The translations under genes and the position numbers were made by a program. From Minisyncoccia bacterium (lineage in GTDB: Bacteria; Patescibacteriota; Minisyncoccia; Phycocordibacterales; Zambryskibacteraceae): a stretch of 52,547 bases of DNA. A model generated the notes under the pieces. That model did not search any database, was not told the DNA's origin, and saw nothing but the letters and a program-made list of their open reading frames with translations. The stretch covers positions 1 to 52,547 of the forward strand of contig JBBQUO010000001.1 of assembly GCA_038212375.1 (NCBI GenBank). Direction: 5' to 3'. Positions 439 through 48,567 of this stretch are shown here, piece by piece; the stretch's first letter is position 1; every line of letters begins with the position of its first letter.

Positions 439-966
439 ATGTTTAGTGATCCTATTAAAAATGTTGAGCAACTAAGCCTGAGACTTGGATCTGTCGTTCT
501 TGATCTCGGAAGTGGCTCAGGACATTATGCTATTGCATCTGCAAAAGCAGTTGGAGAAAAGGGGGCTGTGTATGCTATTGATATCCAAAAGGATATGCTC
601 ACGAAGCTCAAACGAGAAGCAGGTATCCAGGGCTTCCATAACATTGAAATTGTGTGGGGAGATATCGAAAAGTCAGGCGGAACAAAACTTAAGGATTCGA
701 TCGGTGACTACGCCATTATTTCAAACCTCATGTTTCAGGTAATAGATAAAGATTCTGTTGCAAAAGAAAGTTTTCGAATTTTAAAGTCAGGAGGCAAGCT
801 CCTTGTGGTTGATTGGTCAGACGCTTTTGGGGGTCTTGGTCCCCATGTTGATAGTGTTTTTTCCAAAGATGCAGCAGCAGCTCTCTTTACGAAGACTGGT
901 TTTACAATAGAAAAAGATATACAAGCAGGGAGTCACCACTATGGCATGATTTTTTTGCGACCATAA
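439..966 (+). CDS. Class I SAM-dependent methyltransferase
   Basis: 175-aa ORF with motif I VLDLGSGSGHYA and a typical post-I/II layout (AVYAIDI, GGKLLVVDW). Confidence 0.8.
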   Translation: MFSDPIKNVEQLSLRLGSVVLDLGSGSGHYAIASAKAVGEKGAVYAIDIQKDMLTKLKREAGIQGFHNIEIVWGDIEKSGGTKLKDSIGDYAIISNLMFQVIDKDSVAKESFRILKSGGKLLVVDWSDAFGGLGPHVDSVFSKDAAAALFTKTGFTIEKDIQAGSHHYGMIFLRP

Positions 967-973
967 ACCTATC

Positions 974-2260
974 ATGTCTAAATTTCAATTAATTTTAACG
1001 ATCGTGTTCGGAATCTTCATTGTTATGGGAGTTCTCGTTTTTTCTTTTGTTCGTACGAGTAGTGTTCCGCCTTCGTATGTCACAATTTGGGGTACTATTC
1101 CTCAAGAAATATTTAATGAAGTTCTTTCGCAGTCTCCACTTGGAAAGAGTAAGATTCTTATTCTTACCTATGTCCAAAAAAACTCCGATACATTCGACCA
1201 AGATTTTGTAGAAGCACTTGCATCGGGGACCGGTCCTGATGTAGTACTCCTCCCTCACGAAGAGATTTTGAAAAATCAAAGTAAACTCTTTACGATTCCT
1301 TATACTTCATATCCTGAACGCACATTCAAAGATAATTTTATTCAAGAAGGAGAACTTTTCTTGAGTTCAAAAGGGGTGCTAGCGCTTCCACTTACAGTTG
1401 ATCCATTGGTTATGTATTGGAATCGGGATATATTCAACAATGCCAATTTACCGACACCTCCTACTTATTGGGATGAGTTTTATGGACTTGCACAAAAGCT
1501 TACTACCAAAGACGGTGCTCTCAACATTACCCGCTCTGCAGTGGCACTTGGAGGGTGGAGAAATGTGACAAATGCTAAGGCACTGGTTTCAACACTGCTT
1601 CTTCAGGCAGGAGATCCTATTGTGAAAAACAATGGAACAAAGAACGACGTTGTCCTTGGTGATAGTGTGCAAAACCTTCCAATTTCACCAGCAGTCGCTG
1701 CTCTCACATTTTATACAGAATTTTCAAACCCAGCAAAACCTTTTTATTCTTGGAACCCCGCACTTCCAGAATCACAAAATATGTTTATTTCAGGAGATCT
1801 CGCAACATACTTTGGATTTGCATCTGAGATTAGCTCTCTGAAACTTAAAAACCCGAATCTAAACTTTGATGTTACCCAAATGCCGCAATCTCGAAATAGT
1901 GGAGATAAAATTACGTTTGGAGAGCTACAAGCATTTGCGATCGTAAAAACTTCAAAGACAATCGGTGGATCTTTTGGTGCCATAACATCCCTCACATCAC
2001 CTGACAACGTCGCACTCTTTGCGAGAGCTCTTCATTTGCCACCTGCAAGTCGACTTCTTCTAGCAAGTGTCCCAAAAGACCCATACCTTACGATTTTTTA
2101 TCAGAGCAGTTTGTGGTCTATGGGATGGTTTGATCCTAACGCGCCATACACCGAACGATCACTCCAGATCATGATAGAGAACATAACAGGAGGTAAGGCT
2201 CGTCTCGAAGTAGCAATTAGTAAAGCTCGTGACGAAATAAAGGCAATGCTCAACAACTAA
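974..2260 (+). CDS. Membrane-anchored extracellular solute-binding protein-like (SBP family 1-like); no ABC partners nearby
   Basis: 428 aa with an N-terminal TM helix. SBP_bac_1-like segments PDVVLLPHEEI, DPLVMYWNRDIFNNANL and TYWDEF. The stop is 1 nt before the next ATG. Confidence 0.6.
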   Translation: MSKFQLILTIVFGIFIVMGVLVFSFVRTSSVPPSYVTIWGTIPQEIFNEVLSQSPLGKSKILILTYVQKNSDTFDQDFVEALASGTGPDVVLLPHEEILKNQSKLFTIPYTSYPERTFKDNFIQEGELFLSSKGVLALPLTVDPLVMYWNRDIFNNANLPTPPTYWDEFYGLAQKLTTKDGALNITRSAVALGGWRNVTNAKALVSTLLLQAGDPIVKNNGTKNDVVLGDSVQNLPISPAVAALTFYTEFSNPAKPFYSWNPALPESQNMFISGDLATYFGFASEISSLKLKNPNLNFDVTQMPQSRNSGDKITFGELQAFAIVKTSKTIGGSFGAITSLTSPDNVALFARALHLPPASRLLLASVPKDPYLTIFYQSSLWSMGWFDPNAPYTERSLQIMIENITGGKARLEVAISKARDEIKAMLNN

Positions 2261-2261
2261 C

Positions 2262-2675
2262 ATGAAATTCTTTCAATTCATCACCGTTTCGATTGTCGCC
2301 GCCGCGCTTTTTCTCAGTCCATCTTATATTGTGCACTCGGCAGATTCATCTCTGGTATTTTGCAATCAATCTGTAGACCAGAATGGAAAGTTTGTTGGAA
2401 AAGAATGCGGATGGCCTGAGCTTATTCAGCTCCTAAGCCATATTATCAATTACATTACACTCCTTTCGATACCACTCGCGGCGATTGCCTTCTCTATAGC
2501 TGGATTCAAAGTTATGAGCGCAGGAGGAAGTATGAAAGGAAGAGATGAGGCAAAGAAAATTTTTGAAAATGTCGTAACAGGTCTTTTCTTTATTTTAGCT
2601 GCGTGGCTCATCGTAAACACTATTCTTGTTGCTCTCGTAAAAACAGGAGAAGGGTACTCTATTCTTGGAAATTGA
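2262..2675 (+). CDS. VirB2/TrbC-like 'T4SS pilin' family mini-protein, paralogue 1
   Basis: Signal peptide, then two hydrophobic helices separated by the charged loop SAGGSMKGRDEAKK. Same layout as the six downstream ORFs. Confidence 0.6.
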   Translation: MKFFQFITVSIVAAALFLSPSYIVHSADSSLVFCNQSVDQNGKFVGKECGWPELIQLLSHIINYITLLSIPLAAIAFSIAGFKVMSAGGSMKGRDEAKKIFENVVTGLFFILAAWLIVNTILVALVKTGEGYSILGN

Positions 2676-2694
2676 TAATGATATACTTATTCAT

Positions 2695-3126
2695 ATGAAT
2701 CTAAAACGCTTCGGGATCAATGTGCTGGTTCTCACGGTATTACTTACTCCTTTCCTTTCGTTTGCACAGATAGATTTCCCTGGGCAGGGTAATCCAGTGG
2801 AAGTCACTACACCCGCGTCGTCCCCATCTCCCTCTTCGCAAAGCACATTTCCTAATCCACTTAAGGTTGATACGATTTCACAGCTTATAAGCTTGGTCCT
2901 CAATTCTATTGTTCTTCCAATAGGAGGTATGGTTGCGGTCGGATATATCATTTATGCTGGATTTATTCTCGTTACCGCTCAGGGTAATCCAAAGCAAATT
3001 GAGGAAGGGAAAAAAGCGTTTTATAATGCTTGTATTGGAACCGCAATTCTTCTCGGTGCTGTAGCGATTGCTGACGTTGTTAAAAATACGATTTGTAGTC
3101 TTAGTACCACAATATGCACAGGCTAA
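2695..3126 (+). CDS. VirB2/TrbC-like mini-protein, paralogue 2
   Basis: ATG at 2695 gives signal peptide MNLKRFGINVLVLTVLLTPFLSFAQ, then a P/S-rich linker, helix, loop TAQGNPKQIEEGKK and a second helix. Confidence 0.6.
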   Translation: MNLKRFGINVLVLTVLLTPFLSFAQIDFPGQGNPVEVTTPASSPSPSSQSTFPNPLKVDTISQLISLVLNSIVLPIGGMVAVGYIIYAGFILVTAQGNPKQIEEGKKAFYNACIGTAILLGAVAIADVVKNTICSLSTTICTG

Positions 3127-3512
3127 AGCTATATTATTCGGCTACGAGTATCGCTGCTATAATAGGAGTATTAGCTACTCCGCTTGTTTCATTTGCATTT
3201 TCTTGTCCTGTAAACGCGGTAGTGCCCCCGACCAACTTTACTGACGTAGTCTGTTTTGTCGATAGCCTCATAAACAGCATCCTTCCGCTTATAGTCGGAG
3301 CGAGTCTCCTTGTTTTCTTTGCTGGACTCATCAAGCTTATTCGCGGATCTGGTGATCCAAAGAATATCGCAGCAGGAAAGCAACTCATGATATGGGGCAT
3401 TGTCGCACTTTTTGTAATGTTCTCATTTATTGGGATCCTCAACTTATTCGTTGGAGATTTTTTTGGTAAGACGGTAGGTGTACCGCAATTTCCAGAAACA
3501 TCAACACCATAA
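3114..3512 (+). CDS. VirB2/TrbC-like mini-protein, paralogue 3
   Basis: Signal peptide, helix, loop RGSGDPKNIAAGKQLMIWG, second helix. Overlaps the previous gene by 13 nt. Confidence 0.6.
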   Translation: MHRLKLYYSATSIAAIIGVLATPLVSFAFSCPVNAVVPPTNFTDVVCFVDSLINSILPLIVGASLLVFFAGLIKLIRGSGDPKNIAAGKQLMIWGIVALFVMFSFIGILNLFVGDFFGKTVGVPQFPETSTP

Positions 3513-3522
3513 TTACTATTGT

Positions 3523-3810
3523 ATGATTACAAGTTTTCAAGACCTTATACAAGCCGCTGGGAGTCTACTGAACCTCATCCTTCCTATTACGGTCGCCCTC
3601 GCACTGCTCTATTTTTTGTGGGGACTTACGACATTTATCCAAAAGTCTGGAGATGAAAAAGCTCATGCGGAAGGCAGGAGTAAGATGGTGTGGGGAGTTA
3701 TCGCACTGTTTGTTATGTTTTCTGTGTGGGGCCTTGTGGCATTCTTACAAAACGAGCTTATCGGAGGTTCAGGGACATCAACAAGTTTTCCAATTATTAA
3801 TAATAATTAA
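3523..3810 (+). CDS. VirB2/TrbC-like mini-protein, paralogue 4 (no signal peptide)
   Basis: ATG at 3523 (MITSFQDLIQAAG...). Core LPITVALALLYFLWGL..KSGDEKAHAEGRSKMVWGVIALFVMFSVWGLV. Confidence 0.55.
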   Translation: MITSFQDLIQAAGSLLNLILPITVALALLYFLWGLTTFIQKSGDEKAHAEGRSKMVWGVIALFVMFSVWGLVAFLQNELIGGSGTSTSFPIINNN

Positions 3811-3814
3811 TGGT

Positions 3815-4300
3815 ATGAAAAAAGTATTACTCAGTATCGCTTTTATATCCCTCCCATTGTCTACCTTTGCAGCGGGAGCAGTGCTCTCAGGGACAGAAGA
3901 TTTCATCAAAAGAATTAGTAGTCTTATCGCGCTTCTCTTGCCAATAGTTGTAGCTCTCGCACTGCTCTATTTCTTTTGGGGGCTTGCACAGTTTGTGCTC
4001 GTCTCAGGAGACGATAAATCCATTGCCCAAGGCAAGAATAAAATGATTTGGGGCGTCATAACACTCTTTGTAATGATTTCTGTTTGGGGACTCGTTGGTT
4101 TATTGCAAAGTGAGCTCGGTATTAGAGCCAATCAATCAGCCCCGACCATTCCCACACTTCCTGGGTTTGGAAGCTCAGCTTCTACTGGGACAAATGGATC
4201 TGGAGCGAGTGGAAATCCTAGCGGGTCTGGTGATACCCCTATTTGTCCACCGTGCAGTAATTTCCCAGATCCAGCTTGCCCAGGGCTCGAGGTGTGCTAG
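3815..4300 (+). CDS. VirB2/TrbC-like mini-protein, paralogue 5, with G/S/P- and Cys-rich C-terminal tail
   Basis: ATG at 3815 (MKKVLLSIAFISLPLSTFAAG). Core LLPIVVALALLYFFWGLAQFVLVSGDDK..GKNKMIWG. The tail ends PICPPCSNFPDPACPGLEVC. The track ORF starting at 3653 is an out-of-context upstream extension. Confidence 0.6.
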   Translation: MKKVLLSIAFISLPLSTFAAGAVLSGTEDFIKRISSLIALLLPIVVALALLYFFWGLAQFVLVSGDDKSIAQGKNKMIWGVITLFVMISVWGLVGLLQSELGIRANQSAPTIPTLPGFGSSASTGTNGSGASGNPSGSGDTPICPPCSNFPDPACPGLEVC

Positions 4301-4414
4301 TACTTTTCCCCCGCAACCCATTGTCTTTCGTGCCCCCTCTGATATTATGAAAGGTATCCTTTATGGAAGAAAGAAGGTCATTTATAACGATTTACTAAAT
4401 TAATATATAACACA

Positions 4415-4777
4415 ATGAAGAAATTTTTAGGTGCAGTTACAGCGTTTGCCCTCCCAATGCTTGCATTTGCACAGAGCGGTCCTCAGCTTGGTAACATAGA
4501 AACTTTCATCAAATCTATCAGTCGTCTTATCAATCTTCTCTTGCCGATTGTAGTTGCAATCGCACTGTTGTACTTCTTCTGGGGACTTGCGCAATTTATC
4601 CTCAATTCTGGAGATGACAAAGCACAAGCTGTTGGAAAGAATCGTATGATATGGGGAATTGTTACACTCTTTGTTATGGTGTCAGTGTGGGGTCTTGTAG
4701 GTTTTGTCGGCAGTGCTCTCGGTATTCAGCAAGGAGCAAACTCTGGAAACGTTCCGACAGTTCAAGGAGTTAACTAG
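4415..4777 (+). CDS. VirB2/TrbC-like mini-protein, paralogue 6
   Basis: Signal peptide MKKFLGAVTAFALPMLAFAQ. The core matches paralogue 5 at 49 of 63 residues by manual alignment. Confidence 0.65.
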   Translation: MKKFLGAVTAFALPMLAFAQSGPQLGNIETFIKSISRLINLLLPIVVAIALLYFFWGLAQFILNSGDDKAQAVGKNRMIWGIVTLFVMVSVWGLVGFVGSALGIQQGANSGNVPTVQGVN

Positions 4778-4790
4778 TTTTATTGAGACC

Positions 4791-5084
4791 GTGTCAATTT
4801 CAGGATTTCTCGCTGCGATAGCAAGAGTTATTCTCAATCCTTTGATTGTCCTTGGATTTGTTGTAGCTATCTTGTATTTCTTTTTAGGAATATATAAGTT
4901 CATGACAAAAGCAGGAGACGAAAAGTCTAGACAAGAAGGGAAGAATGGAATTCTTTGGGGTCTGGTCGGGATGTTTATTATGGTAGGAGTGTTTAGTATC
5001 ATTAATGTCATTCTTCACACATTCGGCATTGATCAGACTCAAAGTGTAAGCTCAAATGATTACCTCAATCACTTATTGAAGTAA
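4791..5084 (+). CDS. VirB2/TrbC-like mini-protein, paralogue 7 (start uncertain; GTG at 4791 proposed)
   Basis: The track ORF (4704-5084) overlaps paralogue 6 by 74 nt, and its only ATG is at 4704. An in-frame GTG at 4791 follows the upstream stop. Core ILYFFLGIYKFMTKAGDEKSRQEGKNGILWGLVGMFIM. Confidence 0.45.
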   Translation: MSISGFLAAIARVILNPLIVLGFVVAILYFFLGIYKFMTKAGDEKSRQEGKNGILWGLVGMFIMVGVFSIINVILHTFGIDQTQSVSSNDYLNHLLK

Positions 5085-5097
5085 GTCGTTCACAAAC

Positions 5098-5128
5098 AAA
5101 AAACTCACTCCAATCGAGTGAGTTTTTT
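5098..5128 (+). terminator. Rho-independent terminator closing the mini-protein array
   Basis: aaaaaactcactc / caatc / gagtgagtttttt: a 13-bp stem whose 3' arm ends in a T-run. Confidence 0.75.
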
Positions 5129-5172
5129 GTTGTCCATATGTTCTATCTGGTACAGATCTGTATACTATATCT

Positions 5173-6159
5173 ATGAGTAGACTAACCAAAGGAGCAGGAG
5201 AAACTGATACCGTGTTTATTGCGGCGATCGTTATCTTGCTTATTCTGTCTTGGATCCATCTTGGTGCCACAAGGAGTACTCGCGGGGTTTCAAACCTCAG
5301 TCCGTTTTCAGTTGCAACACCAAGTTCTTCATCTCGTTCCACGCAGCCGTATAATAGTGGAAGCAACAGCACTTTAGATGGCACTAAGTCGCCATGGTAT
5401 GGACTCGTCACGATTGACCTTGGGAGTGCTCCGAGCGAATATGAGCCGTACCAAGAATATATTATTCTCCACGCGAGCGGTGACCTTCAAAAATCTATCA
5501 ATGTATCTGGCTGGCAACTATCCAATGCAAAAGGTGCAAAGGTTTACCAAGTCGGAAGTAATGTCACCCGTTTTCAGTCTGACGTAGCGACCATTCCACT
5601 CGCTGTGCCGCTCTATATCCCAGGAAAGGGAAGTATTGCGAGTCCTGTTATACTCGCGCCAAATGGGCAGGTCATTGTAATTTCCGGTTCCAACACAACT
5701 GCAGGAGGCGTCCTTCCAAGTTTTCGAGAAAACAAATGCACAGCCTATCTCACTCATGATAAAAAAAATCCAGTGACTATTTATCCGAGCGTATACAGCT
5801 ATTGTCCTGCACCGTACAAAGAAGCAGGTGTTTCGGGTCTTGATAATGCATGTAATACGTTTGTTTCGAACCTGAATTCCTGCAGTACTCCAGACTTTGT
5901 AAATAGTGTAAGGACCAATGGGTATCTTGAACCTGGCTATGTCGATACGGTCGGCGGACTTTCTCAGAGCTGTAAAACATATATTCAAAACCACTATAGT
6001 TACAATGGGTGCGTCGCAAGCCATAGTGGTGATAGTGATTTCTACGGCTCAACCTGGCATGTGTACTTGGGTCGCAAATGGGAAATGTGGGCAACTGAAA
6101 GAGAAACGGTTACCCTCCTCGATGCAGATGGAAAAATTGTGAATACGTACTCGTATTAG
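5173..6159 (+). CDS. Membrane-anchored protein with lamin-tail-domain (LTD)-like fold and Cys-rich C-terminal region
   Basis: N-terminal TM helix and S-rich linker. LTD-like segment YGLVTIDLG..YQEYIILHASG..INVSGWQLSNAKG..VILAPNGQVIVISG. The C-terminal half contains 7 Cys. Confidence 0.5.
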   Translation: MSRLTKGAGETDTVFIAAIVILLILSWIHLGATRSTRGVSNLSPFSVATPSSSSRSTQPYNSGSNSTLDGTKSPWYGLVTIDLGSAPSEYEPYQEYIILHASGDLQKSINVSGWQLSNAKGAKVYQVGSNVTRFQSDVATIPLAVPLYIPGKGSIASPVILAPNGQVIVISGSNTTAGGVLPSFRENKCTAYLTHDKKNPVTIYPSVYSYCPAPYKEAGVSGLDNACNTFVSNLNSCSTPDFVNSVRTNGYLEPGYVDTVGGLSQSCKTYIQNHYSYNGCVASHSGDSDFYGSTWHVYLGRKWEMWATERETVTLLDADGKIVNTYSY

Positions 6160-6232
6160 TAGGAAAAAATAGAATCAATCTACTCTGATTAAGTGAAGAA
6201 CAGAATGCGACGTATTCTGAAATATAAAAAAA

Positions 6233-6259
6233 GGGCGAAGCGCATACAGCGCTTCGCCC
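6233..6259. terminator. Bidirectional terminator between convergent genes
   Basis: gggcgaagcgc / ataca / gcgcttcgccc, with an A-run before it. Confidence 0.7.
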
Positions 6260-6277
6260 TCGGTTGTCTCGTCGGTA

Positions 6278-7924
6278 TCAGTGATGATTGAATCGTGTCA
6301 CGGTCATCCGAACGAAATCAGGAGAAAAAGAACGGAATCGGAGAGTTTTTGGTCCAGTCGTAAACTTTCCGTTTACCTTCGGTACCCACTCTCCGTTTTC
6401 GAGTGTGTGACTCATGACTGAGTCACCATGCTCGTTGTAGACGGTGTACCGGATATCCTTTTCCGGTTTTGACCGTGTACGTTGGCTAAATGTGGGTACT
6501 GGTTCAGACAGCGAGCTGTCTCTGGGTAAGTCTACGACGATTATCTCGTCTCTCCCTTCCACGAAAGCTGCAACTTGCTCCGGTGTCCTTTCGTTCGGCC
6601 AACCAGGAGGAATGGTTTTGTATCCCATCTCCCAACAATACCTTGACGAACCCCAGTCATTGAATCTTCGATTATTGTACAACTTGCGAGCAATGCGAGC
6701 ATTGCCTTCCGCTGTTTCGATATTCTCGCCACTTTCCGCAATCATGTCACGATGAATCGTGTCGTTGATCTGAAAGAGGCCGACATCGTACTGATTTTGC
6801 TGACCACGAAGTGCAACTGTCGGATTGGTATCCGAGAATTGCTTTCCTCTTGATTCGCAATAGGCGATAGACTTCATGACCGCTACGACACTGTCGCCTT
6901 GGTCATGAAAGGTGCTATCAATCAGCTTTGAGTACTCTTCGGGGAGCAGATCGGCCTTGTTACTTTTCTCGAACGGATTGCTCGATCCAACGTATGTTAC
7001 CTTTGGAACTTGAGCGATTCGCTCTGAACTACTCGGAGCTTTTTCAGCCCAGAGACTGCTCACCGATTCACGGATGTGATCCGGTAAAAAGTAAGGAACC
7101 ACTCCAAAGAGAAACATAGCTCCTGTACTGACAGCGACAAGCTTATGAACAAGCTTGTGGCCACCGGCGGTTTTCCCGAAGGAATATCCGCCGACGATAA
7201 TGATAATCGTCAGAAAGAGACAGGGAACACTCGTCAGGTACGAGTAGATATTCCTCAATCGTTCTCCATACGGGACAAGTACCCAAATGAGGCCGACAAC
7301 AGCGAGATGAAATAATCCCGCAACCAGCAGACCTTTTCCGAATGTTTTGAGCCCGTCACCGCTTGTTCCTCCAACAGGATTTCCCCATTTTTTGAATGCC
7401 CAGATTATTCCCGCTATTGCTGGAATTCCAACAATAACGAGAGCGATAATCCAAAGCGTTGCTGATGAAGAAAACCATGAAGGAAGCGATGGAGATGAAA
7501 ATGTAGCTTGGGAGATAAACCCAACGAGTCGTATAACTCCATACACGATCGCAATTGCAACTGCAATAAAGATCGCTGATCCAATGCCAATTAGAGGCGT
7601 TGTTTTAATCTTCTTCCACATACCGCGTGACCTCCGTTTTGTTTGAAGATACAGAAAGAATATTCGCTTTCGCAAAAATACTTTCTTGTTGTACCACGAT
7701 GTGAATTGACGAAAATATTTCGCCGTAAACTCTGAGATGTGTTTCCGTGCAGAACGGATATTTTGGAAAATCCAAAGCAATATCCGCGAAACTTTCTGCC
7801 ACACAAAACCAAATGCTTTGCTAGTCGAGCTCGCGACACGACGAGGAATATCCGACATATTGTCGATACTCCACATGGTCATAAGTCGAATATTGAGCAG
7901 AAAGCTCTTCCACCAGTCTTTCAC
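6278..7924 (-). CDS. Polytopic membrane protein with lysozyme-like / lytic transglycosylase (VirB1/SLT-like) domain
   Basis: 548 aa with about 5-6 TM helices in residues ~105-290. Then MKSIAYCESRGKQF...YDVGLFQINDTIH, an E-S catalytic motif plus GLFQIN as in family-1 lytic transglycosylases. The start codon is uncertain. Confidence 0.55.
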   Translation of the reverse strand: MKDWWKSFLLNIRLMTMWSIDNMSDIPRRVASSTSKAFGFVWQKVSRILLWIFQNIRSARKHISEFTAKYFRQFTSWYNKKVFLRKRIFFLYLQTKRRSRGMWKKIKTTPLIGIGSAIFIAVAIAIVYGVIRLVGFISQATFSSPSLPSWFSSSATLWIIALVIVGIPAIAGIIWAFKKWGNPVGGTSGDGLKTFGKGLLVAGLFHLAVVGLIWVLVPYGERLRNIYSYLTSVPCLFLTIIIIVGGYSFGKTAGGHKLVHKLVAVSTGAMFLFGVVPYFLPDHIRESVSSLWAEKAPSSSERIAQVPKVTYVGSSNPFEKSNKADLLPEEYSKLIDSTFHDQGDSVVAVMKSIAYCESRGKQFSDTNPTVALRGQQNQYDVGLFQINDTIHRDMIAESGENIETAEGNARIARKLYNNRRFNDWGSSRYCWEMGYKTIPPGWPNERTPEQVAAFVEGRDEIIVVDLPRDSSLSEPVPTFSQRTRSKPEKDIRYTVYNEHGDSVMSHTLENGEWVPKVNGKFTTGPKTLRFRSFSPDFVRMTVTRFNHH

Positions 7925-8005
7925 AACCTCTCCTTTGTTAAAGTTTCAATGACCAGATTCTGGGCGTATTATAGCACATATAATACACATTTGTCAATAA
8001 AAAAA

Positions 8006-8035
8006 GGGGGCTCATTGACTTAGCAATGAGCCCCC
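8006..8035 (-). terminator. Rho-independent terminator for the SPFH gene
   Basis: gggggctcattg / acttag / caatgagccccc. A T6 run follows on the minus strand. Confidence 0.8.
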
Positions 8036-8058
8036 TTAGGGTCTACTATGACCAATTT

Positions 8059-9228
8059 TTATGCATCCTTCTGTGCAGGTTGGGGAATGATAATCCCCAG
8101 TCCGCCACTATTACCAGGAGCAAATGTGGTGACGGTTTTGTTGTTCTCATAGGCCTCGGCAGCCCGGATTGCTGCCGCTCCTGGCTCCCTTGCAATTGCC
8201 AGAGTTACTCGCTGAACGCGATCAGCAGAAACGTCGTTCTCAAGTGTACCGCGTGTTTTGTTCGCTTCTGCAAGAAGACGAATTGATTCCGCGATACCTT
8301 CCGCTTCGGTGATGGCAGCCTGCTTGCTCGCGGTAGCGACCTTAAGTCGTGCAGCTTGTTCGAGTTCAGTTTTCTTGGCGAGCTCGAGAAGTGCTCGGAG
8401 ACCCACTTCTTTCTTGTCAGGGTCTATCGAGAACAATGTTACTGATGTGATACAGAGACCGAGTTGTTCCTCTGCGGCAGTAGAGATATCTTTTACTTCT
8501 TTAACCAATTCAGCTTTCGCTTCTTTGGTTCCACTGAGGTAGTAATCGGGATCATGTGTGCCAGTAAGTGCGATTGTTTTCGCCTCTGACATTTCTGACA
8601 GAGTGGCGTTGCTATCTGCTACTCGCAGAATCGCCCTTACTGGGTAGATTCGTTCCCAAATGATGTTGTACTTTATGTCGAGAGCAAACGCGCCCTTGGT
8701 TTCAGCAGCATTTACTTCGACTGCCTGCTGACCTGAAAAGAAAACATACTCCGACTGAATTACTTGTGGGAATACATGATATCCTTCCTGATCTGCTACT
8801 TTCTGTTTTGATTTCCTTTTTTCTTTTCCGTCTTTTTCCTCAAGCTCCCCCGTGTCATCTGACTTCTTACTTTCAAGTCCGAAGCGAAATGACTTATCGA
8901 TGTTGAGACGAAGGTCACGGAAAGGACCTTTCCAATGTACTCCGTAAAGGAAATGGAGAAGACCACGGTTTTCTTTTCCATCCTCAAATTTCCAATCGTA
9001 GAAATTGTGGCTTTTTTTATTTAGCACCTTTCCTGGTACTTCGTGCTCAACATCCACAATACCACCACCACCTTTGTCGATGTCGGTTGACACGTTTTCT
9101 TTACTTACCAAGATGGCATACATGCCACCTGGTATGAAGAACCACCATGATGCGTTCCGCACTACGATCCCTACGATTGCCCAAAGGACAACAAGGGTAA
9201 TAGGCACGCCGAGCAAGTACCATAACAT
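8059..9228 (-). CDS. SPFH/band-7 (flotillin/prohibitin-like) domain membrane protein
   Basis: The start at 9228 is preceded by AGGAG at a 7-nt spacing. N-terminal TM helix. C-terminal A/E-rich coiled coil (LELAKKTELEQAARLKVATASKQAAITEAEGIAESIRLLAEA) typical of SPFH proteins, with a lysine/glutamate-rich insert. Confidence 0.5.
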   Translation of the reverse strand: MLWYLLGVPITLVVLWAIVGIVVRNASWWFFIPGGMYAILVSKENVSTDIDKGGGGIVDVEHEVPGKVLNKKSHNFYDWKFEDGKENRGLLHFLYGVHWKGPFRDLRLNIDKSFRFGLESKKSDDTGELEEKDGKEKRKSKQKVADQEGYHVFPQVIQSEYVFFSGQQAVEVNAAETKGAFALDIKYNIIWERIYPVRAILRVADSNATLSEMSEAKTIALTGTHDPDYYLSGTKEAKAELVKEVKDISTAAEEQLGLCITSVTLFSIDPDKKEVGLRALLELAKKTELEQAARLKVATASKQAAITEAEGIAESIRLLAEANKTRGTLENDVSADRVQRVTLAIAREPGAAAIRAAEAYENNKTVTTFAPGNSGGLGIIIPQPAQKDA

Positions 9229-9354
9229 AAGGTAACTCCTGTTTTTTAGAAGGATGACAAAGAAACAGTTCTGGGGCAATATTAGCACGTAAATATAGAA
9301 AAGTCAAGTTATAAGCTAGTTCAAAAAAGGGAAGTGTGATAGAGTATTTCTCAT

Positions 9355-9471: not shown

Positions 9472-9860
9472 CGAGGAGGAGGCTCGAAGGGCGTAGGTAT
9501 ATCGCAGATAGTAATCTGCGATACCGAGCTGGGGTCGCGGAAATTTTCGAACGACGGCGAGAAAATTATCTGTGAACGAGACTCGTTAGATGCGCGAGGA
9601 GACTCGAAGACCTTGAATATATCGCACGGAACGGAGTGAGTACGATATGAAAGGTGTACAGAGTCTGTAAGTCTCGAGTCTCCAGACTCGAGACATCACA
9701 ACAGAAAAGGCCAAGAGTGAAAGCTCTTGGCCTTTTCTGTTGTGGTTGAGTGGGAGACTTGAAAGGCGCAGGTAATATCGCATATGGTAATGTGCGACGT
9801 CGAGCCAAGGTAGCAAAAATATGTGAGCGACGGCAAATATATTATTCGTGATCGAGTCTC
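9472..9860 (-). repeat. Three degenerate tRNA-sized repeat units (minus sense), each ending in a tRNA-Leu-like T-arm/acceptor segment
   Basis: Units at about 9472-9584, 9591-9649 and 9752-9860 align by eye. Shared blocks are GGAGaCTCGAAg, TATCGCA-hairpin-TGCGA and CGACGGC..ATTAT..GTGA.CGAGaCTC. 9472-9488 is the reverse complement of tRNA-Leu positions TTCGAGTCTCCTCCTCG with one change. Confidence 0.7.
9697..9744. other. 21-bp perfect hairpin (bidirectional terminator-like)
   Basis: cacaacagaaaaggccaagag / tgaaag / ctcttggccttttctgttgtg. Confidence 0.7.
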
Positions 9861-9866
9861 ATTACG

Positions 9867-9895
9867 TTGACAATTTAATATAATATCAGTATTGT
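9867..9895 (+). promoter_or_regulatory. Candidate sigma70-type promoter for the coiled-coil gene
   Basis: TTGACA (9867-9872), 17-nt spacer, TATTGT (9890-9895), about 45 nt upstream of the ATG at 9939. Confidence 0.35.
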
Positions 9896-9938
9896 AATTT
9901 TTGGCAGTTCATTCCATACCTTAAGTCCAGAGGAAATT

Positions 9939-10373
9939 ATGGCACCAGCTAAAAAGGGTACCCCCAAGCAAAGGAAGCTGCGATTTACAAAACTAAACTT
10001 TGACAGACTCGTCTACGAAGTAGAAGAACTGAAAGATGTTTTGAGTGACTTCCGATCTCACGGGATACATTCGCTAGGAGACATCATTGATTTAAAGGCC
10101 AAACTTACAAAGCTTCATGGTGATAAAGAAACTCAGTGGGAAGCTTGTAAAGCCGCTGAAGGTTTCCTAAAATTACAAATTACTGAGTTGAACATGGCTT
10201 TGGTTGATCGCCAGCAAAATGTGGATGCTCTCACTCGTGATTTGCATGACGCAGATTTGATTTTGTCTAGTTTGCGAAAGGAGCTCAACTCATCATTGGC
10301 TGAAGCTCAACAGTTGAGAGATCAACTCAATCAATCGAAGATAGCTATCGTAAGAATTTCAAGTCTTATATAA
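9939..10373 (+). CDS. Hypothetical coiled-coil protein with basic N-terminus
   Basis: 144 aa. N-terminus APAKKGTPKQRKLRF, followed by heptad-like L/E/K/Q-rich sequence. Has its own promoter candidate and terminator. Confidence 0.55.
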   Translation: MAPAKKGTPKQRKLRFTKLNFDRLVYEVEELKDVLSDFRSHGIHSLGDIIDLKAKLTKLHGDKETQWEACKAAEGFLKLQITELNMALVDRQQNVDALTRDLHDADLILSSLRKELNSSLAEAQQLRDQLNQSKIAIVRISSLI

Positions 10374-10407
10374 TTTTACACTCAAGTGGTGTAAAAAAAT
10401 AAGTTTC

Positions 10408-10438
10408 AAGTCCACATCGGAAGATGTGGACTTTTGTT
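10408..10438 (+). terminator. Rho-independent terminator
   Basis: aagtccacatc / ggaa / gatgtggactt, followed by ttgtt. Confidence 0.75.
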
Positions 10439-10474
10439 ATACAAAAAGCTCCTGCGGGTTTTCTTTGTGGTCAC

Positions 10475-10782
10475 AAGTATTTTTCTACTGAAAAATCTCG
10501 CGACCTCGACGCGCAGTATCAAAAAAATCTCCCGCCAGTTTGGTCGGTCACAAATAATTCAATTGTCGCCAGAATTGAATTTTCACGACCCCGACTTGTG
10601 GTTTTGTGTGCACGTGTGGTCAGGAGTTTTTTTCTTTTCGTCAAAAGAAAAATCTCACGACCCAATTGGGATCGGTCACGAATATTCCACGAACCGTCGT
10701 TCGTGGAATTTCTCGACCCCAGCTCGTCATTTCGCTTACTAGCGAAATATGACTGTGCTTTTCGATCCCAACACGTCGCAAA
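10475..10782 (+). repeat. Field of degenerate tRNA-like/short dispersed repeat units (plus sense), convergent with tRNA-Lys
   Basis: Recurring GAAAAWTYTCRCGACCCC-like blocks at about 10490, 10582, 10648 and 10706. 10475-10498 matches 19895-19918 (24 nt, 1 mismatch). 10544-10559 equals 25190-25205 (16 nt exact). 10761-10772 (TTCGATCCCAAC) equals the tRNA-Lys T-loop plus 3' T-stem on the opposite strand. Confidence 0.65.
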
Positions 10783-10843
10783 ACTGTTTGCGACTTGGGT
10801 GCACAAAATAAAAAAGACGGCCTTCAAGCCGCTTTTTATTTTG

Positions 10844-10916
10844 TGCACCCAGTTGGGATCGAACCAACGACCTTATCCTTAAGAGGGATCTGCTCTACCA
10901 GCTGAGCTATGGGTGC
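10844..10916 (-). tRNA. tRNA-Lys (anticodon CTT)
   Basis: The reverse complement folds as GCACCCA..TGGGTGC acceptor, GCTC/GAGC D-stem, CTCTTAA anticodon loop, and GTTGG-TTCGATC-CCAAC T-arm. 73 nt. Confidence 0.9.
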
Positions 10917-10968
10917 AAAGCAAAATTAACTATCAGATAGTAGCCAAATTTTCCTCTTCTTGCAACCC

Positions 10969-12008
10969 TTACGAAACTCTCGTACTCTTGCTGATTGTAA
11001 AATAAATTTCAAAAAGAGTAAGGAATAGATTCAATGTCAGTGGTCCGAGGAGAAAGCCAATCGGTCCAAAAAAGCTTATTCCGCCGAGTATCGAGAGCAA
11101 AATGAGAAATGAATGCAATCTTACATTTCTTCCAATAAGCTTAGGTCCGAGTACATTGTCGATAAGGCCGACAGCAAGCATTCCCCATACCAATAGGCCA
11201 AACGCAGAAGCAGCTTTCCCTACAACAAATAAATAAACAATAGCTGGCAAGATGACTAGAGAAGTTCCTACGCTCGGTACAAGGGCTGCAACTACAGTAA
11301 CAAGGCCCCATAGAACCGCGCTAGGCACTCCAAAGAAGAGAAAGCCAATCGATGTTAATATTCCTTGTACAAGTGCCACCGTGAGGTTTCCTCTGATAAT
11401 AGAATTTGTAGCTATTTCGAGCTTATCAAAAACTATGACGTCGTACACATCACTGAGGGGACTCAGTTCAATAATTTTGTTTTTAATCGTTTTACCGTCC
11501 TTTAAGAGATAATACAGTGCAAGGAGGAAGATAAAGGTATCGACGAGAATTTTGATTGCGTTCGTAAAGAGAGATCCGATGTTTTGAATAAATATATCGA
11601 GACCACTTTTGATGTATTGATCAATATTAACAACAGCACTTTCAGGGATATTGAGATTTACTTTGAGGTTTTTCAGTGCCTCCACTGCATGTCTAGAGAA
11701 CTCAGTTGAGTTACTTGGTGTCGCAAGTGATGTGTAGATTCCTGTAGCTTCTTGGAATATTTGTACTGAAATAAAAGTGAGTGGGATAATAAGGACTATA
11801 AATACCAATAATGTAGTAAGACTTGCTGAGAAAGCAGGACTATTATGAGTTTTTTTAGTATCCGTTTGTGAATGGGGTCAAGTGCAGTTGCAAACACAAC
11901 CGCAAGAAGAAGGGGATACAAAAAAGGTTGAAAAATAAAAACTATCAATCCAAAAATAGCAATGAGTAATGCAAGGAGAAAATATAATTCTGACTTTTGA
12001 TTTTGCAT
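10969..12008 (-). pseudogene. AI-2E family transporter (PerM/UPF0118) split by a -1 frame change at an A7 run
   Basis: ORF 11796-12008 (N-terminal TM1 and ALDPIHKRILKK) and ORF 10969-11808 (remaining TM segments, ..VLWGLVTVVAALVPSVG..GLIDNVLGPKLIG..) lie in different frames. Adding one A to the run at 11850-11856 gives a continuous ..ILKKTHNSPAFSASLTTLLVFIVLIIPL.. Confidence 0.7.
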
Positions 12009-12018
12009 TAGTTTTTTG

Positions 12019-12100
12019 TGGGCCAGGAGGGAGTCGAACCCTCATCCGCAAGGCGGACAACATTTTAAGTGTTGCGTGTATACCATTCCACCACTAGCCC
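12019..12100 (-). tRNA. tRNA-Leu (anticodon TAA)
   Basis: GGGCTAG/CTGGCCC acceptor (one G-U), CAACA-CTTAAAA-TGTTG anticodon arm, 14-nt variable arm, GAGGG-TTCGACT-CCCTC T-arm. Confidence 0.9.
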
Positions 12101-12124
12101 ATAATTTAAAAGTGGGATCGATCT

Positions 12125-12137
12125 TTCGATTCCCATC
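12125..12137 (+). repeat. Opposite-strand exact copy of the tRNA-Cys T-loop/3' T-stem, inside that tRNA's terminator hairpin
   Basis: TTCGATTCCCATC matches the tRNA-Cys sense sequence over 13 nt, 22 nt downstream of the tRNA 3' end. Confidence 0.8.
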
Positions 12138-12159
12138 GAAAAAACTACGTTTTTTCTAG

Positions 12160-12231
12160 AGGCGTGGATGGGAATCGAACCCATGAATAAAGCTTTTGCA
12201 GAGCTTCGCCTTACCACTTGGCCACCACGCC
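12160..12231 (-). tRNA. tRNA-Cys (anticodon GCA)
   Basis: GGCGTGG/CCACGCC acceptor, AAGCT-CTGCAAA-AGCTT anticodon arm, ATGGG-TTCGATT-CCCAT T-arm. 72 nt. Confidence 0.9.
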
Positions 12232-12393
12232 TTTATACTAATACACCATTTCTTTTTCAAACCGCTTCACTGTATCACCAAGTCAATCTTCGCGCGGTAT
12301 TCCTTTCGCTACGCTCATGCACTTGACTAGCACTCCTTTGTCTAAAATCTAACAACTGATTACTTTGAACTATCAGCCATCTCCTTGGTAATG

Positions 12394-12729
12394 CTAATCA
12401 TTATTAAGGAGAAAATCAATTTTTTGTCGGTTTTTTTCTCCTAAGTCTAGAGCAAAACTGAGCATTGGGATCCTTCCAATGCGAGATTTGTCTTGTACGT
12501 AGTGTTTAAAATCAAGTCTTTTTCGATTGAGAAAATCTTTTGCTGCAAGTTCCTGATTTTCTGGAAGTACCGTGTACAGAAGCATTGCACGCTTACTATC
12601 ACCAGAGAGTCTGCATCCGGTAATAGTGATAAGTGAAGTACGATTTGATTCGAGTGCAATAAAGTCTGCCGCAAGATGCGTAATAAGTTCAGGGAGCTTT
12701 TCTTTTCGGTAACTGATTGGTTTAGGCAT
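12394..12729 (-). CDS. rbfA: Ribosome-binding factor A
   Basis: 111 aa, immediately downstream of infB. RbfA-like pattern: ..ITITGCRLSGDSKRAMLLYTVL.. then ..RIPMLSFALD. Confidence 0.75.
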   Translation of the reverse strand: MPKPISYRKEKLPELITHLAADFIALESNRTSLITITGCRLSGDSKRAMLLYTVLPENQELAAKDFLNRKRLDFKHYVQDKSRIGRIPMLSFALDLGEKNRQKIDFLLNND

Positions 12730-12800
12730 GGAGTAAAAAATGAAGCTATGTCCGTTTGCACAATGCTGAACTTTAACACTTTTTCTGATATTTGTATAGA

Positions 12801-12848
12801 GTCCCTAGGTCTCACCTAGAACAGCTAACCTAGGTGAGACCTAGGGAC
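12801..12848. other. 19-bp perfect inverted repeat abutting the infB stop codon
   Basis: gtccctaggtctcacctag (12801-12819), a 10-nt loop, then ctaggtgagacctagggac (12830-12848). No T-run follows on the minus strand. Each arm carries two CCTAGG-type sub-palindromes. Confidence 0.8.
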
Positions 12849-14347
12849 TATTTTTGGGTGAGCGCAAAGCACTCGATTCTGTCACCAGGCGCTACTTCAA
12901 TTTTTGATTCGAGCATTGCACCGAACTCCTTTCCTTCATCGACACGGCCAATTTTTTCTTTTTGAATCTGAAGTTCACGGATTCTTCCTCGACCGATCTC
13001 AGCGTCACGGCGAATGATTTTTACTTGCTCACCAGAAACAATTTCACCTTCTTCAACTCGACCACCAATAACTTGTTTATCGCGAACTTTTGAAAAGAAT
13101 TTAAGAATTTTTGCTCTTCCGGTCGTTTCTTCTACTTCAACAGAAGGCGTTCTTTCTTTGAGAGCTACTTCGAGCCACTCTGTAATTTTGTAAATTATAT
13201 CAAATTTTTGCACTGGGATTCCAAGGCGTAATGCAAGGCTCTCTGCTTGTGGATCGATCTTGGTATGGAATCCAATAACAATTGGTCTCTCGTGACTCAT
13301 TGCTGCACGAATATCGTTTTCCGATATTGGACCAAGGCCTGACATCACCACTTTCGGCATCATGCGGTCATTTTCTAATTTTCCAATTTCGTAAATCAGT
13401 GCTTCGAGACTTCCTGATGTATCTGCTTTAATAACAATAGGAATAAGTGCCTGACCACTGCTTTGAATTTTCACCGGTTTTTCCTGTAATTTTGCTGTCT
13501 CGGTGTTTTCGAGTACCAGTGCGAGGGCTTCTTTTTTTGTTTTGACGCAAACAAATGCACTCCCAACCGTTGGGGGAATATCCCAGCCAATGATTCTTAT
13601 TGGACTTGAAAATGTAGCCTCATCAATTGGTTTCCCAAGAAAATTTTCTACAATACGAAGAGGGGAAATGCTCCCTCCACATACAGCAAATTCACCTTTG
13701 TGGAGTGTGCCGTTTTTTACAATACCTGATGCAGTAATACCTTTTTTTGTATCGAGGTTGCTTTCAATGATGATTCCAGATGCATCAGCGCCTGCGTCAC
13801 CAGTAAGCTCTTCAAGCTCAGCTGCGAGAAGGACAAGATCGAGGAGCTCAGAGACACCTTCGCCAGTTTTTGCCGAAATAGCTGCCCATGAAATGCTTCC
13901 TCCATATCCTTCGAGAAATATGTCGTTCTCTGCTAAATTTTGTTTTGTCCGATCAACACTTGCTCCTGGTTTATCTATTTTATTTATTGCTACAACGAAG
14001 GGAATAGAATCCTTTTGCAAAACTTTGAGCGCCTCAAGTGTTTGAGGTTTTACGCCGTCTTCTGCTGAGACTACGAGAATACCGAGATCTGCAACGCGTG
14101 CTCCTCGAGCGCGGATAGCACCAAAAGATTCATGTCCTGGTGTATCAAGAAATGTGATTGTGTGCTTCGCTCCATCTTTTGCATCATGGATTACTTCGTA
14201 CGCAGAAAGATGCTGAGTGATACCTCCTGCCTCTGTGTCCACGATATTTGTCTTGCGGATATAATCAAGAAGAGTCGATTTACCATGGTCGATATGACCC
14301 ATAATGGTAACTACAGGAGGTCTGGTGGTCTTAGGTATATCTTTCAT
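12848..14347 (-). CDS. infB: Translation initiation factor IF-2 (short form, no long N-terminal region)
   Basis: 499 aa with G-domain VVTIMGHIDHGKSTLLD, DTPGH and NKID, followed by IF-2 domains. Confidence 0.95.
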   Translation of the reverse strand: MKDIPKTTRPPVVTIMGHIDHGKSTLLDYIRKTNIVDTEAGGITQHLSAYEVIHDAKDGAKHTITFLDTPGHESFGAIRARGARVADLGILVVSAEDGVKPQTLEALKVLQKDSIPFVVAINKIDKPGASVDRTKQNLAENDIFLEGYGGSISWAAISAKTGEGVSELLDLVLLAAELEELTGDAGADASGIIIESNLDTKKGITASGIVKNGTLHKGEFAVCGGSISPLRIVENFLGKPIDEATFSSPIRIIGWDIPPTVGSAFVCVKTKKEALALVLENTETAKLQEKPVKIQSSGQALIPIVIKADTSGSLEALIYEIGKLENDRMMPKVVMSGLGPISENDIRAAMSHERPIVIGFHTKIDPQAESLALRLGIPVQKFDIIYKITEWLEVALKERTPSVEVEETTGRAKILKFFSKVRDKQVIGGRVEEGEIVSGEQVKIIRRDAEIGRGRIRELQIQKEKIGRVDEGKEFGAMLESKIEVAPGDRIECFALTQK

Positions 14348-14357
14348 GGAAGTGTAA

Positions 14358-14840
14358 TTATTTTGGAGTAGTAAGAGTTTGTTTTGCGTTTGCTACTGCT
14401 GTACGTTCCTCTTCGCTCATTTCAAATTCTGACTGAAATTTTTTGAGAGGTTTGCTGAAGATGCTGATATGTTCACGAGAGTAGAGGGATGAAATAACCA
14501 CGCCATCACCTTTTTCGTTCAAAAATGCAGTAGCAAAGCTTTGGTTTCCACCCGAGCCCGTTCCCTTGAAAGGATTGAAACGAATAGTTTCAACCACTTG
14601 GAGACTTCGTTTGATGCGAGCTTCGATGTTCTTGAGATATTCGATTGAATCTTTCTTAAACTGCTCATAATCTGCTAAGCCTCCCTTCATTGCAAGAAGA
14701 GAATCTTCTAGCGTCTCGCTACCTTTGCCCATGAGAAGTCTCTTCATTCTAATCTCAAGATACACGATCCATAAAGACAAAAGAATGATGAGTCCAAATA
14801 GGATATATACCATTAATTGAGTTGTAAAAAATTGAGTCAT
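14358..14840 (-). CDS. DUF4446 family membrane-anchored protein
   Basis: N-terminal TM helix. Central RFNPFKGTGSGGNQSFATAFLNEKGDGVVISSLYSRE matches the DUF4446 signature. Confidence 0.6.
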   Translation of the reverse strand: MTQFFTTQLMVYILFGLIILLSLWIVYLEIRMKRLLMGKGSETLEDSLLAMKGGLADYEQFKKDSIEYLKNIEARIKRSLQVVETIRFNPFKGTGSGGNQSFATAFLNEKGDGVVISSLYSREHISIFSKPLKKFQSEFEMSEEERTAVANAKQTLTTPK

Positions 14841-14954
14841 TCCGTGATATAAAAGGGACCTCAGTATACAAAAAAAATATCAATATGCAAAGAAAATGCT
14901 ACTTTTCTATTCTGACAATAGTATACGAATACAGAAAAAAATGGTATAACAACT

Positions 14955-16181: not shown

Positions 16182-16213
16182 AGTGACGTTCAGATGTATA
16201 GTAGAATAGACAC

Positions 16214-48067: not shown

Positions 48068-48140
48068 AGGTTTGATTGGTTGCACCATTACAAAAAAGTT
48101 GTATTGTAATTTCGGACCCCTAAACTACAGGAGATGTCAC

Positions 48141-48506: not shown

Positions 48507-48523
48507 TAAAGGAGGTGTGAATC

Positions 48524-48559: not shown

Positions 48560-48567
48560 CTTTTCTA

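Follow-up and report, generated by a model that had tools for sequence, protein, structure and literature searches.

The stretch of DNA analyzed here, called the window throughout, is one entire 52.5-kb contig (52,547 nucleotides) from the metagenome-assembled genome (MAG) of an ultrasmall bacterium of the candidate phyla radiation (CPR, or Patescibacteria), class Paceibacteria. Near one end, within positions 974 to 9228, seven small pilin-like proteins are encoded in a row behind a solute-binding protein (SBP). With rather better than even confidence, we read these genes as the pilin operon of a type IV secretion system (T4SS) of the Patescibacteria type, that is, monoderm and related to the mating-pair-formation class MPF-FATA, with virB4, trsD, virB3/prgI and virB6 located elsewhere in the genome. 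The operon would then supply a heteromeric set of VirB2-like subunits together with an oligosaccharide-binding SBP.

The SBP gene (974..2260, plus strand) encodes an anchored homologue of maltose-binding protein (MBP) of 428 aa with SBP_bac_1/SBP_bac_8 matches, and the pilin genes follow on the same strand. P1 (pil1, 2262..2675) is a protein of 137 aa with a signal peptide and a two-helix hairpin. P2 (pil2, 2695..3126) has 143 aa from a likely ATG at 2695 in an open reading frame (ORF) that opens with TTG at 2665, and P3 (pil3, 3114..3512), of 132 aa, overlaps it by 13 nt. P4 (pil4, 3478..3810) has 95 aa from a likely ATG at 3523 and is followed by P5 (pil5, 3815..4300), which has 161 aa from its likely ATG at 3815 and a C-terminal extension rich in Gly/Ser and Cys. 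The row ends with P6 (pil6, 4415..4777), of 120 aa, and P-last (pil7, 4791..5084), of 97 aa from a likely GTG at 4791 in an ORF that opens with TTG at 4704. With these refined starts, the plus-strand genes are spaced by a 1-nt spacer, the 13-nt overlap and otherwise 4–19 nt. The tight or translational coupling described in the initial annotation therefore stands, except for a gap of 114 nt between the end of pil5 at 4300 and the start of pil6 at 4415. Upstream, a class I S-adenosylmethionine-dependent methyltransferase of 175 aa (439..966, plus strand; Methyltransf_31/25/11 matches) stops 7 nt before the SBP start. Of 87 loci, 71 have such a gene immediately before the SBP, and that of L001 overlaps the SBP start with its stop; it is probably the first gene of the same operon.

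All seven mini-proteins score above the gathering threshold of PF18895 (T4SS_pilin), with 27.5–43.4 bits against 26.6 (P1 36.0, P2 38.0, P3 27.5, P4 39.8, P5 40.2, P6 43.4 and P-last 29.4 bits), and a hidden Markov model (HMM) built from the seven detected no further copy in the window. Their earlier description as VirB2/TrbC-like is upheld by these matches. The TrbC family itself (PF04956) gives a more divided picture, as P2, the best match, is significant (23.1 bits, E 8.9e-5) but stays under the cut-off of 27.9; P1 follows at E 0.045 and the other five pilins have no match. Similarly, four of the five pilins scanned match the NCBIfam model NF045849 (Mbov_0395 family pilin-like conjugal transfer protein) below threshold, at E 3e-8 to 2e-4 and 21–33 bits against a cut-off of 40. 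A tblastn search of all PLSDB plasmids gave one match, at E 1e-4 with P2. It lies in a Bacillota replicon, from Pontibacillus (L087; NZ_CP062975.1, 351801–361354), and is a gene annotated as an Mbov_0395 family pilin-like conjugal transfer protein; a 'VirB4-like conjugal transfer ATPase, CD1110 family' and a peptidoglycan hydrolase of 1,050 aa are encoded four genes downstream. Monoderm clusters of the MPF-FATA type can thus encode VirB2-like proteins, a class that was assumed to be without them in a 2025 survey (PMC12102498).

Hydropathy scan, alignment and AlphaFold2 (AF2) modelling describe a common architecture of two hydrophobic helices joined by a short charged loop, usually preceded by a signal peptide, with Gly66 and Lys69 of the loop invariant in the alignment. 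The AF2 model of P6 places the signal-peptide helix at residues 3–20 and the hairpin helices at 28–63 and 68–101, with a mean confidence (pLDDT) of 68.5. A transmembrane (TM) scan assigned no signal peptide to P4 and P-last. Diderm VirB2/TrbC proteins (PF04956) share the signal peptide, the two hydrophobic helices and the short basic loop. They differ in setting, since the present system is monoderm, has seven ordered paralogues instead of one major pilin, lacks VirB5 and has no VirB4 or mating-pair-formation genes at the locus. The Mbov_0395-family proteins of monoderm integrative and conjugative elements (ICEs) and plasmids are likewise small two-helix proteins with detectable sequence similarity to the window pilins; however, they occur as a single copy inside a conjugation cluster, and the window pilins stay under the family cut-off. 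Taken together, sequence and architecture support the assignment of the mini-proteins as putative VirB2/TrbC-type pilin-like proteins.

The linkage of SBP and pilins is conserved throughout the lineage. The best 80 loci, labelled Paceibacteria, Zambryskibacteria, Parcubacteria and Campbellbacteria, were taken with 10-kb flanks, and the HMM built from the seven window pilins was iterated over all ORFs of the related loci. Every one of the 76 non-redundant relatives with sequence past the SBP has 5–8 same-strand pilin ORFs directly 3' of it, with six and seven as the modal array sizes. The first pilin ORF begins a median of 2 nt after the SBP stop (at most 40 nt in 71 of 77 loci), and the median gap between pilins is 13.5 nt. 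Four independent contigs, for which gene calls and precomputed Pfam annotation were available, have the same SBP–pilin arrangement. The comparison of synteny across relatives, to which the initial annotation had tied its proposal, thus came out strongly in favor of a conserved order of SBP and then pilins.

The order of the pilins within the array is conserved as well. In other genomes, the best match of pil1 is the pilin at array position 1 in 75 of 76 cases, that of pil2 position 2 in 72 of 76, that of pil3 position 3 in 49 of 73, and that of pil7 (P-last) the last position in 67 of 74. The remaining pil4, pil5 and pil6 form one subfamily with 54–60% mutual identity that is usually penultimate in other arrays; P4 is 54% identical to both P5 and P6 by BLASTP, and the 60% identity of P5 and P6 points to a recent duplication. 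When 445 pilins were grouped into Louvain communities, each of the larger communities was limited to one or two neighboring positions. Positional orthologues are 36–44% identical across about 75 species, and paralogues in the same genome are more distant; identity to pil6 within the window array ranges from 21 to 60%. The last-position class stands apart with a median length of 94 aa and only two hydrophobic segments in 49 of 66 members, whereas the other positions have a signal peptide and two helices. Positional orthology and a class without signal peptide argue for distinct conserved roles in one assembly and against interchangeable variants.

In the SBP-linked pilin array of another Patescibacterium, L046, a protein of 2,170 aa is encoded at 9747–16259 (plus strand). 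Its domains are a signal peptide, He_PIG, Big_9, cadherin, PKD and fn3 repeats and, at the C-terminal end (aa 2059–2170), a P2-type pilin core. This giant adhesin fused to a pilin shows that the N-terminus of the pilin core can display a large ectodomain.

The protein at the head of the operon matches SBP_bac_1 (PF01547) at 69.8 bits (E 5e-19) and has a single N-terminal TM helix at residues 1–32. Its AF2 model, computed from 21 orthologues, reaches a pLDDT of 87.6 and shows a bilobal periplasmic-binding-protein fold. The best Foldseek matches are the mannooligosaccharide-binding CpMnBP1, Atu4361 with sucrose or maltotriose, and cyclo/maltodextrin-binding proteins, at E ~1e-21, TM-scores of 0.65–0.75 and identities of 15–19%; similarity to MalE in sequence is remote. 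The invariant residues include many Trp, Tyr, Asp and Asn, a composition that is suggestive of sugar binders and would go no further than that. On its model, the protein is predicted to be an MBP-like oligosaccharide binder. It belongs to a large family of more than 2,500 database relatives, the best 120 of which are all about 430 aa long and 47–65% identical, and a scan of species representatives placed orthologues of 45–65% identity in at least 582 species genomes. The window contains no BPD_transp or ABC_tran gene, and in the 10-kb flanks of the 80 loci, where ORFs of at least 400 aa were covered and small permeases were not scanned, the sole ABC ATPase is in L086.

Extracytoplasmic SBPs that are genetically or functionally coupled to a T4SS are familiar from Agrobacterium (ChvE) and pCF10 (PrgZ). 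ChvE binds sugars and signals the presence of the host, and PrgZ belongs to SBP family 5; the two have roles in regulation or pheromone import and show no translational coupling to pilin genes. The window SBP differs from them also in having no adjacent partner kinase or permease.

As the initial annotation had noted, the window contains no VirB4, VirD4, VirB6, VirB8 or relaxase, and no PrgI either, among its ORFs of at least 100 aa. Since the window is one whole MAG contig, the absence of an ATPase there says nothing about the rest of the genome. At the locus level in relatives, too, no P-loop ATPase recurs within 10 kb on either side of the 80 loci among ORFs of at least 400 aa, where SMC, ABC, P-type ATPase, RNase J, LigD and similar proteins occur as singletons. 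VirB4 is nevertheless widespread in these bacteria. It was found in 2,417 of 3,035 Patescibacteria assemblies, and VirB2-like pilins were found in 1,948 VirB4-positive assemblies but near virB4 only in 1,135 (PMC12102498). In Paceibacteria, virB4 is close to dnaA/dnaN. Among the Zambryskibacteria, 22 of 25 listed assemblies are VirB4-positive, and one of these, RIFOXYC1_FULL_39_10 (Table S1, PMC12102498), carries the SBP–pilin locus L029 with no ATPase within 10 kb on either side. In that table, most of the Wildermuthbacteria are VirB4-negative. The published occurrence of pilins far from virB4 and a VirB4-positive relative with the same locus argue that the operon is a satellite of a T4SS encoded elsewhere, which was one of two possibilities left by the initial annotation and fits these data.

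Arrays of this kind have been described before, so that the term 'undescribed' applied to the locus earlier does not hold. Quinonero-Coronel et al. (2025) reported 441 Patescibacteria arrays of 2–11 pilin genes of the families PF18895 and PF04956, with an average identity of about 25%, mainly in Microgenomatia and Saccharimonadia (PMC12102498). Their survey was centered on 20 coding sequences on either side of virB4 and read the arrays as a means of host-range versatility. Like those arrays, the window array consists of seven tandem pilin genes of low mutual identity on a Patescibacteria chromosome. In a second system, 'Candidatus Southlakia epibionticum' ML1, six PF18895 genes (SEML1_0014–0019) lie beside genes for VirB6-like, PrgI and VirB4/TraC proteins, and all six are essential for epibiotic growth (Wang 2023, PMC10633639). 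Both S. epibionticum and the window organism are Patescibacteria with six to seven tandem same-strand PF18895 proteins of about 100–190 aa and low mutual identity, without a relaxase and with lysozyme-like proteins encoded nearby. The S. epibionticum array, however, is inside the T4SS cluster and has no SBP, whereas the window array is detached from the ATPase, headed by an SBP and located between gyrA and infB.

Patescibacterial arrays of VirB2-like pilins, including pilins far from virB4, are accordingly published knowledge. What appears to be new is the lineage-wide operon headed by an SBP, its location apart from virB4 within a constant chromosomal frame, the positional orthology of the pilins, the terminal subunit without signal peptide, and a partner SBP modelled as an MBP-like oligosaccharide binder without transporter genes in its vicinity. 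SBP linkage, the SBP-headed operon across Paceibacteria and positional orthology are absent from the 2025 survey, and our literature search on Patescibacteria found no link between an SBP and pilins. Field reviews call the function of the patescibacterial T4SS completely unknown, and it is essential for epibiotic growth in one tested species. Paceibacteria are the largest class, and the locus shows that the lineage has a pilin operon apart from virB4. Its ancient position-specific paralogues imply a heteromeric structure with distinct subunit roles. The invariable co-translation of the pilins with an MBP-like SBP is a clue to the function of the secretion system: the soluble SBP ectodomain should be easy to express and to screen for ligands and could reveal, free of cultivation, what the apparatus recognizes or takes up. 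To a specialist, the pilins will come as no surprise; the obligate SBP partner offers a concrete experimental route to the role of the CPR T4SS.

In the mechanism that we infer, the operon would comprise, in order, the methyltransferase (where present), the SBP, P1, P2, P3, the P4/5/6 family and P-last. Most pilins would be exported by Sec and cleaved after a signal peptide of the P-x-x-F-A type, and would remain in the membrane as hairpins of two helices joined by a short basic loop with the invariant Gly and Lys. A distant VirB4 machine would extract them and assemble a heteromeric surface filament or conduit in which different array positions have different roles. The bulk subunit could be the P4-6 family, as it is the family that duplicates; P1 and P2 may be specialized subunits able to carry ectodomains, and the short P-last, which has no signal peptide, may be a membrane-retained base or initiator. 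The co-translated SBP would bind a glycan, either an oligosaccharide of the host envelope or cell wall or one of the bacterium's own wall, and would act as a co-receptor or adhesin, or else help with assembly or substrate capture at the base of the structure. Passage through the wall could plausibly be given by the separately transcribed lysozyme-like membrane protein discussed below, and a protein with an LTD-like domain encoded after the array would be a lineage-specific accessory surface protein.

Several points weigh against reading the locus as a T4SS pilin operon with an SBP as a component. The SBP, with its conserved aromatic-rich invariant residues, could be just a co-transcribed nutrient receptor, in which case the result would be no more than a useful annotation for a conserved pilin operon. 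We know of no T4SS in which an SBP is a structural partner. A Foldseek search with the P6 model (pLDDT 68.5) against the PDB gave no match at E ≤0.001, and the pilin profile retrieved no conjugative pilin among PDB sequences, both with short helical hairpins, which are poorly discriminated. As no solved conjugative pilin was retrieved, the designation 'VirB2-like' is founded on similarity at the Pfam and NCBIfam level together with architecture. A T4SS pilus has never been visualized in any Patescibacterium, and the literature speaks only of a 'potential to elaborate' pili. The search of this genome for T4SS ATPase and channel genes was confined to its one 52.5-kb MAG contig. Finally, 3 of the 25 Zambryskibacteria assemblies are listed as VirB4-negative (Table S1, PMC12102498), which is likely due to MAG incompleteness.

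A bolder version of the same idea, which we regard as unlikely, gives the SBP a more central place. In Paceibacteria, the T4SS-derived pilins would have become part of a device coupled to the SBP, a heteromeric filament or conduit with its subunits in fixed order and an anchored SBP as obligate partner. This SBP would recognize glycans of the host envelope at the site of contact or capture host sugars that arrive through the conduit, and the whole would serve as an organelle for attachment and uptake instead of as an exporter. If true, a solute-binding protein would for the first time be an integral part of a T4SS, and the ligand of the SBP would be a direct handle on the essential function of the CPR T4SS.

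The evidence can also be arranged around a membrane complex that is independent of VirB4. Here the seven two-helix proteins would form a hetero-oligomeric pore or receptor of fixed stoichiometry to which the anchored SBP docks in order to import or sense a host oligosaccharide. The fixed and ancient order of the paralogues does suggest a defined stoichiometry, one conserved subunit has no signal peptide, and the translational coupling of SBP and pilins is universal in the lineage. It would also account for a genuine oligosaccharide-binding fold that has no ABC permease or ATPase nearby, and for the lack of a locus ATPase in all 80 genomes. On the other hand, the family is homologous to the T4SS pilin-like proteins of VirB4 clusters, no energizing component is evident, and the subunits with cleaved signal peptides as well as the pilin core fused to a 2,000-aa adhesin favor surface display. 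A transporter of this type would be without precedent, and we consider it rather improbable.

An array for variation is the reading closest to the published suggestion for Patescibacteria. The pilins would be interchangeable major subunits that let the cell vary its antigens or its host range, as has been proposed for Bartonella and Anaplasma; the SBP would be an unrelated nutrient receptor that happens to be co-transcribed. The low identity within the array (21–60%), the lineage-specific duplication of P4-6 and the array size of 5–8 agree with it. Orthology of positions 1, 2 and last across about 75 species at 36–44% identity, however, speaks for conserved distinct roles, as does the class that is systematically without a signal peptide, and a linkage to the SBP in 76 of 76 loci, with about 2 nt from stop to start, is unlikely to be a coincidence. 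Ancient ordered paralogues fit a hetero-oligomer better than antigenic variation, and variation as the purpose of the array seems to us decidedly improbable.

Three further genes lie 3' of the pilins, and with them the initial annotation had drawn up a single module of eleven genes, nine consecutive on the plus strand and the last two convergent on the minus strand. The ORF map and Pfam scans returned all eleven at their places within 974–9228 and in these orientations. The first of the three (5173..6159, plus strand) encodes an anchored Cys-rich protein of 328 aa whose LTD match (PF00932) is significant at 32.2 bits (E 1.5e-7) and falls just under the curated cut-off of 34.3. Homologues occur in only 5 of about 80 loci (the window, L008, L020, L025 and L058), and the protein is an accessory limited to a subclade.

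The second gene (6278..7924, minus strand) encodes a polytopic lysozyme-domain protein of 548 aa, or 532 aa from the annotated start M17 at 7876. It has about five TM segments, a lysozyme-like domain at approximately aa 345–433 and a conserved β-rich C-terminal domain. Of the VirB1/SLT-like domain ascribed to it, the lysozyme motif can be confirmed: SLT_3 (PF18896) matches residues 347–424 at 26.4 bits, slightly below the cut-off of 27 (E 9.6e-6), and in 15 orthologues Ser358 and Gly382 are invariant and Glu357 and Gln385 at least 90% conserved. The kinship to SLT is less clear, since PF01464 does not match, and C-type (GH22) animal lysozymes are the best profile matches at E 1e-6, above any bacterial SLT structure. 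In the alignment with hen egg-white lysozyme, Glu35 corresponds to E357 and Asp52 to D380, the latter position being Asp in 10 of the 15 orthologues. Neither a CHAP nor an M23 domain was detected in the protein, and a VirB6/TrbL-like nature of its polytopic domain, which was also considered, found no supporting match. The lysozyme-like domain has 839 relatives, most of them small and of secreted type, some with PG_binding_1. The polytopic family itself evolves fast (about 20% identity, 139–686 aa); the lysozyme-like motif is usual in members from about 350 aa upward and absent from shorter ones, and about a third of the orthologues are without it. VirB1, TraG of pIP501 and PrgK resemble the protein as membrane-anchored, lysozyme-fold proteins with a catalytic Glu-Ser motif encoded beside pilin genes. 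They differ in that here a C-type lysozyme is the best profile match, the gene has its own promoter and terminator, and the domain is missing in short orthologues. By analogy with VirB1, the protein plausibly opens peptidoglycan locally.

The third gene (8059..9288, minus strand) encodes a SPFH/Band-7 membrane protein of 409 aa, or 389 aa from a likely ATG at 9228, with one N-terminal TM helix. As with LTD, its match is significant in E-value (7.9e-5) and just under the curated cut-off (Band_7, PF01145; 23.2 bits against 23.6), and the orthologue in L003 is recorded as Band_7. The protein may organize a membrane patch.

Transcription signals separate these last two genes from the operon. A strong intrinsic terminator (6231..6261, minus strand; 13-bp stem with 9 GC pairs, T-run) lies 3' of the lysozyme-domain gene between the convergent units, and a sigma-70 promoter of the same gene at 7968..7997 (minus strand) has TTGACA, an 18-nt spacer and TG-TATAAT, matching the consensus at 12 of 12 positions with an extended −10. 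A second strong intrinsic terminator is found 3' of the SPFH gene (8004..8037, minus strand; 14-bp stem with 8 GC pairs, T-run). Having a promoter and/or a terminator of their own, the lysozyme-domain and SPFH genes are separate monocistronic units outside the pilin operon.

Searches with single sequences (phmmer) recovered orthologues of the lysozyme-domain protein in 14 loci and of the SPFH protein in 12, and iterated profiles raised these numbers to 59 and 61. Of the 44 loci with enough sequence, 36 have a homologue of the polytopic protein immediately after the array and 42 an SPFH homologue no more than 5 kb away from it. This is no closer an association than that of gyrA, which is upstream of the SBP in 60 of 62 loci, compared with adjacency in 34 of 35 for SPFH and 29 of 35 for the polytopic gene. 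Where infB synteny is lost, SPFH still lies beside the array in 10 of 10 loci and the polytopic gene in 9 of 10. As the region from gyrA to infB is collinear, adjacency of these two genes is by itself weak evidence of a shared function, and with an LTD gene in 5 of about 80 loci and two separate transcription units, the eleven genes do not hold together as one module. An origin of the locus from a mobile element (ICE or plasmid) was discarded, as the same gyrA...rbfA-infB housekeeping frame is found in dozens of species and the GC content is unremarkable.

The other possibility left by the initial annotation, a minimal and self-sufficient apparatus in which SBP, pilins, LTD, lysozyme-domain and SPFH proteins build an attachment filament without a T4SS ATPase, could draw on the 80 genomes in which no ATPase occurs within 10 kb to either side of the locus, on the lysozyme-domain and SPFH genes staying beside the array despite lost infB synteny, and on the few related assemblies listed as VirB4-negative, but no positive evidence for it emerged. 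It is highly improbable, given that most relatives have VirB4, among them one that carries the same locus, that the LTD gene is in just 5 loci, that the lysozyme and SPFH genes are transcribed separately, that about a third of the polytopic orthologues have no lysozyme motif, that gyrA-to-infB collinearity makes adjacency little informative, and that to our knowledge VirB4-free polymerization is known for no pilin of this class.

The rest of the window is housekeeping or unrelated, with infB, rbfA, clpB, miaA, parB, relA/spoT, topA, dprA, serS, ftsQ and dus as well as seven tRNAs. A separate type IV pilus cluster, distinct from a T4SS, occupies 34304–39455 on the minus strand. It includes a T2SSE ATPase (38247–39455), T2SSF/PilC (37145–38254), an LVIVD β-propeller protein (35190–36710) and pilins with an N_methyl motif at 34687–35193 and 36688–37212; another such pilin is encoded at 45625–46182 on the plus strand. 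With this cluster and the T4SS-type pilin operon, the cell would have at least two unrelated filament systems.

Some minor observations concern single genes. In one related Patescibacterium (L042), the SBP locus is preceded upstream by a gene (2288–5107, minus strand) for a 939-aa protein that has the shoulder and repeat domains of Major Vault Protein. In the window, a gene for an AI-2E family transporter appears split (10969–12008, minus strand): the ORF at 10969–11808 spans profile positions 56–326, and a 70-aa ORF in another frame (11796–12008) resembles the missing N-terminus, as would result from either a frameshift, a pseudogene or an assembly error. Lastly, an isoprenoid/carotenoid-like trio at 47222–50906, composed of a UbiA prenyltransferase (47222–48067), a flavin amine-oxidase/desaturase-type protein (48568–50073) and a phytoene/squalene synthase (50055–50906), is unexpected for a reduced CPR genome.

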